13,428 bases of DNA from a virus (Duplodnaviria > Heunggongvirae > Uroviricota > Caudoviricetes), in the IMG/VR virus record IMGVR_UViG_2579778791_000027. One strand, 5' to 3'. The notes beneath the pieces were generated by a model, which saw only the letters and a program-made list of their open reading frames with translations, was not told where the DNA came from and did not search any database. The first letter of the stretch is position 1, and the number at the start of each line of letters is the position of its first letter. Below are positions 5,782 to 10,962 of the stretch, in pieces. Both the position numbers and the translations under genes were made by a program.

Positions 5782-5923
5782 CCCGCTCAGGCGGATTTCA
5801 TTTTCACGCAAACAACAGAATAAACACAGCGCTGTGTATTCATTCCAACGAGTGAATACACGGAGCAATGTCGCTCGTAACTAAACAGGAGCCGACTTGT
5901 TCTGATTATTGGAAATCTTCTTT

Positions 5924-8949: not shown

Positions 8950-9161
8950 CACCTCAGCAAGAAAACGCCCTTCGCAGCATTGCCCGTCAGGCTAATTCTG
9001 AAATCAAAAAAGCCAGACAGCAGTTTCCGGATAAAAACGTCGATGACATTTGCCGTAGCGTACTGAAGAAGCACCGCGAAACGGTAACGCTGATGGGATT
9101 CACACCGACTCATTTAAGCCTGGCGATCGGCATGTTAAACGGCGTCTTTAAGGAACGGTGA
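8946..9161 (+). CDS. Small early-left hypothetical protein (start uncertain)
   Basis: Open frame ending at 9161 (...VTPQQENALRSIARQANSEIKKARQQFPDKNVDDICRSVLKKHRETVTLMGFTPTHLSLAIGMLNGVFKER). Candidate GTG start at 8946 is coupled to the upstream peptide; the frame is open back to an ATG at 8880. Confidence 0.45.
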   Translation: MTPQQENALRSIARQANSEIKKARQQFPDKNVDDICRSVLKKHRETVTLMGFTPTHLSLAIGMLNGVFKER

Positions 9162-9183: not shown

Positions 9184-9207
9184 GGAGCTACAGGCTCCTT
9201 TTTTATT
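9184..9207 (+). terminator. Intrinsic terminator-like hairpin
   Basis: ggagc-tacag-gctcc followed by TTTTTTATT. Confidence 0.5.
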
Positions 9208-9259
9208 GTTCGCATTCACCCTCAAGCGTATTAACCAACAATTCAGGGATTAATGGAAG

Positions 9260-9481
9260 ATGGCAGACATCATTGATTCAGCATCAGAAATTGAAGAATT
9301 ACAGCGCAACACAGCAATAAAAATGCGCCGCCTGAACCACCAGGCTATATCTGCCACTCATTGTTGTGAGTGTGGCGATCCCATAGATGAGCGAAGACGC
9401 CTGGCCGTTCAGGGTTGTCGGACTTGTGCAAGTTGCCAGGAGGATCTGGAACTTATCAGTAAACAGAGAGGTTCGAAGTGA
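9260..9481 (+). CDS. TraR/DksA-family C4 zinc-finger protein (lambda Orf73-like)
   Basis: 73-aa ORF with CxxC...CxxC (CCECGDPIDERRRLAVQGCRTCASC), typical of the TraR/DksA family and consistent with lambda Orf73. Confidence 0.8.
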   Translation: MADIIDSASEIEELQRNTAIKMRRLNHQAISATHCCECGDPIDERRRLAVQGCRTCASCQEDLELISKQRGSK

Positions 9482-9691
9482 GCGAAATTAACTAGAAGCC
9501 AAAGATAAAATCATCGCTGAGCAGGAGAAAATCGCTAACGGAGAAAAGACAGTAAGTCAGTATATGAAAACCGCATGATATCATCAGATAAAAATCGATC
9601 GTAAAGCGAAATATTAATACCAGAATAAACGAGTCGAGGTAAATTATATTACCTCGATAAATTAACTAAAACTTGCCCGCTATATACTATC

Positions 9692-10294
9692 TCATTCAGT
9701 ATCATCACGCGCGGTCTGTGCATATGTTACTACCGCACCTAATGTATTAATTTTCTTTTCAACATAGATAATATTATCGTACTCATAATTGCCATACGGA
9801 TAGCAAATGCGAATATTCTCATGTAGATCGGGGTCATCCACCTCAGCTCCAGAACAACTTTTTGAACTACCGGAAGTATACCGATACGGTGCAACATAAG
9901 ACGATGTCTCTCCAGGCAAAAAATAAGTTAGTGTTGTAAGGGGTATAATCAGAAAAAATCCAGCAAATATGCACATCCCTGCATAAACCTTAAGGTATGC
10001 TGACAGACTCTTCCAGCCGCTTTGTTTTACTATCCCCTTCTTAACCCAAAACAGAGATAACAGAAAAGCTATTCCCATGCTAAACAGAATGTAATAGTGG
10101 GATATACTCTGATTAAGAAACGTGACCCTGTAAATATCTGCCCGCCACCAGAAGAAAAGGAAAATAAAGATCAGGCCTGAAACTGTCATGCAAATCAAAT
10201 AAGGATACGAATCTTTTTTCATGTTTAGCGTCCATAAAATTTTTCCTGCCCCGGACAAATTTACCATCCATTTTTTGCGCAGAAAATAGCTCAT
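9692..10294 (-). CDS. Hypothetical integral membrane protein (multiple predicted TM helices plus a ~70-aa C-terminal soluble region), AT-rich, opposite in orientation to the early-left operon
   Basis: 200-aa ORF. Hydrophobic stretches YLICMTVSGLIFIFLFFWW, YYILFSMGIAFLLSLFWV and AGMCIFAGFFLIIPLTTLTYFL. Three in-frame ATGs (10294, 10267, 10222), none with a strong SD, so the start is uncertain. Not recognised as a lambda protein. Confidence 0.6.
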   Translation of the reverse strand: MSYFLRKKWMVNLSGAGKILWTLNMKKDSYPYLICMTVSGLIFIFLFFWWRADIYRVTFLNQSISHYYILFSMGIAFLLSLFWVKKGIVKQSGWKSLSAYLKVYAGMCIFAGFFLIIPLTTLTYFLPGETSSYVAPYRYTSGSSKSCSGAEVDDPDLHENIRICYPYGNYEYDNIIYVEKKINTLGAVVTYAQTARDDTE

Positions 10295-10536
10295 TACTTA
10301 CTGCACAATAATACACAAAATTGCGTAAATTTTTTGCATGGATTTTAGCTCTTTCAGCCGACGTTTAAGGGGTAAATAGCATTTCCTAAAAGCAACTGCA
10401 CCAACCCAACAGAATGAGCTACCGCTTACGTTGAGAGCAAAAAAGTGTATAGCAGCAATGAACAGCATCCTCGCACTGACGAGGATTTCTTTTATCTGAA
10501 CTCGCTACGGCGGGTTTTGTTTTATGGAGATGATAA

Positions 10537-10704
10537 ATGCACTTCCGAGTCACAGGTGAATGGAATGGAGAACCATTCAACAGAGTTATCGAAGCAGAGA
10601 ACATCAATGACTGCTATGACCACTGGATGATATGGGCGCAGATAGCACATGCAGACATAACCAATATTCGAATTGAAGAACTGAAAGAACACCAAGCCGC
10701 CTGA
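10537..10704 (+). CDS. Small hypothetical protein (55 aa) immediately upstream of xis, possibly the lambda orf55 equivalent
   Basis: ATG at 10537 with a GGAGA RBS 6 nt upstream; product MHFRVTGEWNGEPFNRVIEAENINDCYDHWMIWAQIAHADITNIRIEELKEHQAA; stop lies in a terminator-like hairpin. Below the track threshold. Confidence 0.5.
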   Translation: MHFRVTGEWNGEPFNRVIEAENINDCYDHWMIWAQIAHADITNIRIEELKEHQAA

Positions 10705-10720
10705 TGGCGGCTTTTTCTTG
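10694..10720 (+). terminator. Intrinsic terminator-like hairpin upstream of xis
   Basis: aagccgcc-tgat-ggcggctt followed by TTTTCTT. Confidence 0.5.
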
Positions 10721-10743
10721 CGTGTAATTGCGGAGACTTTGCG

Positions 10744-10962
10744 ATGTACTTGACACTTCAGGAGTGGAACGCACGCCAGCGACGCCCAAGAAGCCTTGAA
10801 ACAGTTCGTCGATGGGTGCGCGAATGCAGGATATTCCCTCCTCCGGTTAAGGATGGAAGAGAGTATCTGTTCCACGAATCAGCGGTAAAGGTTGACTTAA
10901 ATCGACCAGTAACAGGTAGCCTTTTGAAGAGGATCAGAAATGGGAAGAAGGCGAAGTCATGA
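10744..10962 (+). CDS. xis: Excisionase Xis
   Basis: 72-aa ORF MYLTLQEWNARQRRPRSLETVRRWVRECRIFPPPVKDGREYLFHESAVKVDLNRPVTGSLLKRIRNGKKAKS recognised as lambda Xis; overlaps the int start. Confidence 0.95.
   Translation: MYLTLQEWNARQRRPRSLETVRRWVRECRIFPPPVKDGREYLFHESAVKVDLNRPVTGSLLKRIRNGKKAKS

Follow-up and report, generated by a model that had tools for sequence, protein, structure and literature searches.

The window (the whole 13,428-nt stretch of DNA that was analysed) carries on its + strand a pL operon with the gene order gam, bet, exo, orf60a, orf63, orf61 and orf73, followed by xis and int. The last gene of the first series, orf73 (9260-9481, +), encodes a TraR/DksA-type zinc-finger protein (Pfam zf-dskA_traR, E = 7.7e-9; phrog_54) and is 98% identical to lambda at the DNA level. 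Convergent with it is a membrane-protein gene on the - strand, and no record matching the window has any annotation between the two. The lambda Orf73 protein has been studied (PMC9239242). The reference lambda record (NC_001416, 30396-30838; L009, 2697-3139) has no gene annotated for orf73. Upstream, in the orf61 homolog (ORF 8880/8946-9161), an A-run at about 9000-9012 differs by 1 nt in length from lambda, which alters the upstream reading frame between the window phage and lambda.

Over positions 9260-9700, identity is 100% to phage 434 (OL657226/7) and phage 2B8, and 97.5% to mEp332. As a whole, the window matches E. coli prophages integrated beside ybhC; it is a 434-like prophage at that site. 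Phage 434 has ORF114 (345 nt) between ORF55 and xis, and this gene is absent from the window (~10705-10745) and from mEp332. Because the window lacks ORF114, unlike OL657226 and M60848.1, it represents a 434-like prophage and not 434 itself. Among 5,426 complete E. coli genomes, about 900 carry a 434-type prophage.

The TGA of orf73 overlaps a GTG start codon. From this GTG runs a stub of five codons, GTG AGC GAA ATT AAC (9478-9492, +), closed by TAG at 9493-9495 (VSEIN*). The stub is identical to the beginning of lambda ea22, a member of the ead/Ea22-like family (PF13935, IPR025153) that occupies the same place after orf73, with the same overlapping GTGA and the same first five codons. Among 80 IMG/VR loci, the ea22 alleles 3' of orf73 all begin VSEIN[S/Y]Q..LR, except for a few with VSVIHSQALR (the V in VSEIN alleles is the GTG start codon). 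An earlier reader of this DNA had overlooked 9478-9492 as the start of ea22.

In a pairwise alignment, identity to lambda is ~98% up to 9493; the sequence is then unrelated, and identity resumes at 10467. The left edge common to the window and lambda is GTGAGCGAAATTAACT, and homology to PhiR5_1 ends at 9494. A non-lambda block of 973 bp (9494-10466) therefore stands in place of the lambda ea22 body and ea8.5. The earlier note had proposed that ea22-type genes were lost here by deletion or replacement, and named colinearity with lambda as evidence to the contrary; the alignment showed that the interval is not colinear with lambda, with breakpoints at 9493/9494 and 10466/10467, in agreement with replacement. 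At the right end of the replaced block lies the tL4 hairpin (10467-10486, +), identified by the lambda alignment and by a match in a scan for terminator-like elements; the old 434 record M60848.1 annotates a t-L4 terminator at window positions 10463-10493.

Between the stub and the membrane gene, an open frame of 28 codons (9492-9575) ends in a TGA at 9576-9578 and translates as LEAKDKIIAEQEKIANGEKTVSQYMKTA*. An in-frame TAA (9489-9491) lies directly 5' of this frame, whose sole in-frame start codon is an ATG at codon 25, so that it has no usable start; the ORF list for the window contains no + strand ORF of at least 20 aa over 9492-9578. The frame had been reported before as lacking a start codon, which is correct, and as ending at 9572, which is 3-6 nt short of its true end at 9575 or at the TGA. 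An open frame of 28 codons is not unusual by chance, and its significance therefore has to come from homology.

The homolog was reached through relatives of the neighbouring membrane protein. One of these (P0042, 78% identical) is encoded in a P2-like prophage, L091, where an Ea22-like gene lies downstream of the membrane gene in convergent orientation. Positions 9492-9535 of the window (LEAKDKIIAEQEKIA, +) match, in frame, LETKDNRIAELEKIA of the Ea22-like gene of L091, L102 and L105 at 34 of 44 nt (77%). Comparison of window positions 9470-9700 with L091 yielded three colinear HSPs: 9479-9494 (15/16 identities, the ea22 start), 9492-9535 (E = 2e-6), and 9585-9699 (68% identity, covering the spacer, the hairpin described below and the end of the membrane gene). 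The L091 Ea22-like gene is itself frameshifted by a 1-nt deletion in a G-run, and contig L102 has the same allele intact (127 aa, P0085), convergent with a 176-aa membrane gene. The reconstructed L091 protein scored 101 bits against Pfam Ead_Ea22 (E = 8.6e-29). A 196-aa protein, P0078, described by its source as an ead/Ea22-like family protein, is 98% identical to the reconstruction and confirms the join at the frameshift (VGDPEV).

As described in PMC10834534, Ea22 proteins begin with a short N-terminal segment and end in a C-terminal domain that is variable and mosaic; the centre is a coiled coil (IPR025153), and it is there that the alignment places 9492-9535. The assignment to the Ead/Ea22 family comes from in-frame homology within a conserved gene order (34/44 nt, to a homolog that itself scores 101 bits against PF13935), and this homology extends over no more than 44 nt (15 aa) of a coiled coil with biased composition. 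The protein score of the fragment against the L091 allele exceeded those of 1996 of 2000 shuffles and was matched by 4; its score against 120 family members exceeded 499 of 500 shuffles and was matched by 1. Against lambdoid Ea22 alleles other than the L091 type, the fragment scored at shuffle level (518/2000), as is expected for a short coiled-coil segment. The surviving piece is closest to an allele of P2-like prophages and not to the lambdoid alleles. Compared with intact ead/Ea22 genes, the remnant is missing both the variable region at the N-terminus and all of the C-terminal domain, and stops after 5 codons. MAFFT (alignment A5) had placed the fragment in the N-terminal region of Ea22 (REKAEKATKG); this placement was rejected as an artefact, since the colinear nucleotide match gives a coiled-coil position.

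Searches that started from the fragment itself returned its own kind. TBLASTN of the 28-aa peptide, suggested earlier as the way to identify the ancestral gene, matched just 434, 2B8 and mEp332 among 50,697 phage records, and so did distant BLASTN of 9490-9700; the homolog was found in prophage contigs instead. When 9495-9600 was compared by distant BLASTN with 5,426 E. coli genomes, there were 910 hits, and since every one of them covers at least 80% of the query, these genomes hold no intact ancestor at the DNA level. The 28-aa fragment had no Pfam match at E <= 10, a test for which it is too short. When the X-padded peptide was used to search 5.8 billion proteins, three ORFs were returned and all were rejected as artefactual: P0001 is a read-through, P0002 is the BAA-2192 fusion described below, and P0003 is a fusion to unrelated upstream DNA at a contig end.

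The stub and the coiled-coil piece meet in a microhomology, CTA (9492-9494, +), shared between the ea22 5' end (AAC TAt) and a coiled-coil codon (CTA/CTG). This junction is defined by the overlap of the colinear L091 HSPs 9479-9494 and 9492-9535 (alignment A6). Relative to the intact 127-codon L102 allele, ~235 nt are missing between codon 5 and the LLDW/LE position. The CTA joint creates the TAG at 9493-9495 and puts the downstream piece out of frame with the stub; a functional Ea22 gene, with an intact frame, coiled coil and C-terminal domain, is not present at this locus.

Downstream of the coiled-coil piece is an orphan tail of 49 nt (9536-9584, +), which comprises the last 13 codons of the frame (NGEKTVSQYMKTA), the TGA and 6 more nt. 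In the phage collection, the E. coli genomes and the 5.8 billion proteins it matches only 434-type sequences; it does not align to L091 or L102 and has a counterpart in no Ea22 allele. The earlier note had described the frame as the 3' end of a lost gene and left that gene unnamed. The homology makes the frame a gene relic and supplies the name, ead/Ea22-like, with the first five codons of the gene surviving at 9478-9492. That the frame includes a native 3' end is unproven, because its last 13 codons and stop have no homolog anywhere searched, and without a counterpart for 9536-9584 the TGA cannot be shown to be the native stop.

The tail lends some weight to a different history, in which a gene other than ea22 stood here before the moron and the frame is its genuine 3' end, with ea22 lost separately. 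Such a history would explain 13 terminal codons and a stop that no Ea22 allele shares, and Ea22 C-terminal regions are known to be highly mosaic (PMC10834534). We nevertheless consider it unlikely: the one homology that could be detected for the frame leads to an Ea22-like coiled coil, placed with respect to the membrane gene as it is in L091 and L102, and the tail was found in no other gene among the 5.8 billion proteins. That the frame is a chance stop-free stretch in an AT-rich spacer, with no gene ancestry, was already disfavoured and is very improbable. Stop-free runs of 28 codons are common by chance, the fragment alone has no Pfam, PHROG or TBLASTN match, and its similarity to most Ea22 alleles is at shuffle level; against this stands the in-frame match, at 77% of nucleotides, to the gene shared by L091, L102 and L105. 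The ea22 start and the membrane-gene 3' flank lie colinearly on either side of this match, and shuffles reach its score at a frequency of roughly 0.002. On this homology, the 9492-9575 frame is a piece of an ea22-family pseudogene and not a chance frame.

Three left junctions were found within 13 nt: 9494/5 in 434-type sequences, 9499/9500 in the C11 type and 9506/7 in BAA-2192. In C11 and like strains, a 1.2-kb deletion fuses exo to position 9500 at a GCCAxAAAG microhomology. In the rare BAA-2192 variant, ea22 codons 1-10 are joined in frame to KIIAEQ..., producing a 33-aa ORF (MSEINYQALRKIIAEQEKIANGEKTVSQYMKTA) that scores 15.1 bits against PF13935 (cut-off 27); the corresponding protein cluster consists of a single protein from a single contig. 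Three junctions so close together are not explained by a model of random deletion. The junctions at 9494-9507 may reflect events anchored at the same homology boundary, and the cluster (9494-9507; L004, 3495-3505; L007, 715-725) may mark a recombination-prone spot.

Variation among strains fits a neutral, non-functional remnant. An IS4-family element lies inside the remnant in strain 2e, and insertions of this family lie in or beside the remnant and the membrane-gene cassette in some E. coli strains (L006, 2190-3398; L004, 4537-5531), consistent with a dispensable stretch. At the end of contig L008, foreign and possibly IS-derived DNA abuts the fragment. Coding-position variants among the 434-type loci are nonsynonymous (A>D, Q>H), except for one change of the stop from TGA to TAA. 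The remnant is a pseudogene, because nothing there can be translated: the frame has no start codon, and a TAG follows the 5-codon stub. Programmed frameshifting was considered and rejected, as the sequence has no slippery site. Continued expression as a mini-protein, by frameshifting or through variants such as the 33-aa BAA-2192 ORF, would fit the in-frame joint of that variant and the retention of 9507 onward in all three junction types, but is the least credible reading, given the TAG after 5 codons and the lack of a slippery motif in 434-type sequences, the single-member, single-contig BAA-type cluster, and the tolerance of IS insertions and nonsynonymous changes.

The convergent membrane gene has its stop codon at 9692-9694 and its start at 10294 or, more likely, at the ATG 10220-10222 (-). 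Since its relatives are mostly 169-178 aa long, the ATG is the probable start, and the protein would have 176 aa rather than 200. Together with its own 5' and 3' flanks the gene forms a moron (9585-10300, -), with 76% identity to L091 over 9585-10359 and a GC content of 0.36-0.40, against 0.45-0.48 in the flanking DNA. Two P2-like prophages, L091 and L105, whose flanks are 97-98% identical, differ by a 712-bp insert that consists of the membrane gene with 78 nt upstream and 103 nt downstream. In L091, the insert replaces the last 220 nt of a 196-aa Ea22-like gene that is present in L105. Homology of the window to L091 begins exactly at the insert boundary (9585) and runs to about 10359. The earlier idea that ea22-type sequence was lost when the moron arrived is borne out in this P2-like pair, where the moron cut off the 3' part of an Ea22-like gene.

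The insert is present or absent as a unit between near-identical genomes, and the 434-like block is absent from lambda. Phage morons are promoter-gene-terminator cassettes between conserved genes. The insert described here resembles them in being discrete, with ~80 and 100 nt of flanking sequence, in the orientation of its gene against the surrounding operon, in its lower GC content and in its 3' hairpin. Unlike typical morons, it has a weak terminator signature and no convincing sigma-70 promoter: a consensus scan of the minus strand upstream of the membrane gene found none. The OL657226 entry has, at about 10305-10318, a CII-site pattern (TTGT-N6-TTGT) marked by its depositor.

Relatives of the membrane protein (45-78% identity), among them proteins of 170-178 aa, lie in the gpA-gpQ hotspot of P2-like prophages of Salmonella, Klebsiella and E. 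coli (L091-L099, L108, L110); a Logan contig, L100, was left out because it looked rearranged or chimeric. In P2, the interval between gpA and gpQ (the tin/old locus) is known from earlier work as a hotspot for cargo genes (Rousset et al. 2022, PMC9122126). Beyond the moron, positions 10301-10416 resemble P2-like backbone, with 73-77% identity to L105 (4130-4188 and 4267-4329) and to the phages Chuche and Shae_phiSM (a Citrobacter phage), in all of which this backbone is found regardless of the cargo carried. From the homology of 9585-10359 to L091, the backbone-like 10301-10416 and the drop in GC content, we infer that the block 9494-10466 probably came from a P2-like phage, out of its gpA-gpQ cargo hotspot. 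Relatives of the membrane gene sit at this cos-proximal hotspot in the P2-like prophages, as does the Ea22-like allele that most resembles the fragment; the locus analysed here differs in that the block lies in the lambdoid exo-xis region and in that a defence role is only putative.

Ea22 is usually discussed just as a lambdoid exo-xis gene. In the P2-like prophages, Ead/Ea22-like genes (L105, 3501-4091; L091, 3622-4004) are resident cargo, beside parM/stbB, and the 196-aa allele has a CxxC...C zinc-ribbon-like N-domain. OL657226 annotates a 56-aa ORF (10298-10468, -) as a putative membrane protein. This ORF occupies DNA whose homolog in the P2-like backbone is non-coding, starts within the tL4 hairpin, has no family match and is probably spurious.

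In the 3' flank of the moron, 34 nt downstream of the membrane-gene stop, is a perfect hairpin with a 9-bp stem and a 6-nt loop (9634-9657, -). It had been reported earlier as an 8-bp stem (cgaggtaa/ttacctcg, 9635-9656); that description is correct, and the stem extends by one further pair. Both features noticed before, the open frame and the hairpin, are real. Folding of the + strand yields -13.8 kcal/mol (z = -5.1) and folding of the - strand -12.9 kcal/mol (z = -3.2); the stem of the hairpin, with 4 G-C pairs among the 9, is of the kind found in terminators. The 13.4-kb window contains 2 perfect 9-bp hairpins, versus 0.25 expected in shuffles; the other lies at 5834-5861 and has a 10-nt loop. 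On the minus strand, the tail CTCGTTTATT (9633-9624) is a weak T-tail, with 5 T in 8 starting 3 nt past the stem, and passes a lenient scan. The + strand tail ATAAATTAAC has no T-run, and a consensus scan calls the hairpin on the - strand only. Rfam had no family within 9200-10900.

The hairpin is invariant in the 434-type loci except in C11, which has an A.C mismatch. Most of the stem survives in L091 and L102, where a double change has turned one A-T pair into G-C, one G-C pair has become G.T, and each sequence has one mismatch; the T-tail is absent from both, and the more distant relatives have no equivalent hairpin. Across four sequences, covariation was not significant (231/500 shuffles), and 92% of cells could pair, versus 59% or less in shifted registers (n = 4). 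The hairpin most likely forms in the membrane-gene mRNA, on the minus strand, and would serve there as a weak terminator and/or a stabiliser of the 3' end.

The earlier note had suggested that the hairpin may terminate both convergent genes. A bidirectional intrinsic terminator, serving orf73 and the pL transcript as well as the membrane gene, would suit a stable, symmetric stem of -13 to -14 kcal/mol on both strands between convergent genes, but we think it improbable. The + strand tail is without a T-run and the consensus call is for the - strand only, as described above, and N-antiterminated pL transcripts must continue to xis and int. Bidirectional termination is therefore not supported, because pL transcription has to pass the hairpin to reach these genes; the annotated tL4 lies further on, at 10463-10493. 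The lambda pL Rho-independent terminators, of which tL4 is an example, are likewise stem-loops in the same operon region; tL4 has a + strand T-run and is conserved with lambda, whereas the 9634-9657 hairpin has no + strand T-run and is not found in lambda. At best, the hairpin is a weak terminator for the membrane gene, and not a bidirectional one.

Alternatively, the 9+6+9 perfect palindrome could be a DNA site for a dimeric protein, such as a regulator or recombination factor, rather than an RNA element. Its perfect symmetry would suit such a site, the A-T to G-C double change in L091 and L102 keeps DNA symmetry as well as it keeps RNA pairing, and the T-tail is not conserved. However, the window contains no second copy of a half-site, no known binding motif was recognised, and a place just 3' of a gene is typical of terminators; we give the DNA site little credence.

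Taken together, 9482-9691 is best explained as non-coding debris followed by the 3' flank of a cargo gene. We assign a probability of roughly 0.78 to the overall reading, that an ea22-family pseudogene (stub plus coiled-coil piece) and a cargo-gene hairpin lie in a block that replaced ea22 and ea8.5. An ead/Ea22-family gene would once have stood 3' of orf73, with its start now joined out of frame to a 44-nt coiled-coil piece. The C-terminal part of the Ea22-like gene would already have been cut off by the discrete moron of ~710 bp (the membrane gene and short flanks), and a P2-like phage, through its cos-proximal cargo hotspot, was probably the source of the whole block 9494-10466 with its ~115 nt of P2-like backbone. 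In this lineage, the captured block would have replaced the lambda ea22 body and ea8.5, either by homologous exchange followed by an internal deletion, or by a single illegitimate joint. The hairpin, in the 3' flank of the moron and in minus-strand mRNA, might limit antisense transcription into orf73 and exo. While the sequence relationships, breakpoints and folding energies were observed directly, we deduce from them which way the block moved, in what order the events took place and what the hairpin does. Of the earlier interpretation, the replacement, the gene relic and the moron cut stand; the bidirectional terminator does not, and the gene is no longer an unknown one.

The 434-type prophages thus have no functional ea22 or ea8.5, and in their place carry an ea22 pseudogene that had gone unannotated. 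The exo-xis genes ea22 and ea8.5 are reported to bias the choice between lysis and lysogeny. The locus is a clean case, dated by comparison, of a moron that truncates a gene and, on this reading, is followed by a microhomology deletion, and it suggests that the lambdoid exo-xis region and the P2 gpA-gpQ hotspot have exchanged cargo. A more far-reaching proposal can be made only tentatively, and we would bet against it as a whole: that the block 9494-10466 was captured directly by a lambdoid phage from a P2-like anti-phage hotspot, with Ea22 genes as the 'linker' through which cargo shuttles, the membrane protein an uncharacterised exclusion or defence gene, and 9494-9507 a recombination-prone joint in the ea22 coiled coil. 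The locus as explained above is ordinary phage mosaicism and leaves current concepts unchanged; its value lies mainly in annotation and in phage history.

The analysis also draws attention to the membrane protein (phrog_1416), which is widespread and a candidate exclusion factor; PADLOC gave no hit for it. A scan of genome contigs with the protein returned one match, which was rejected as lying on a mis-binned contig. Enterobacter has a chromosomal homolog with a LysR gene on one side and a GGDEF gene on the other.
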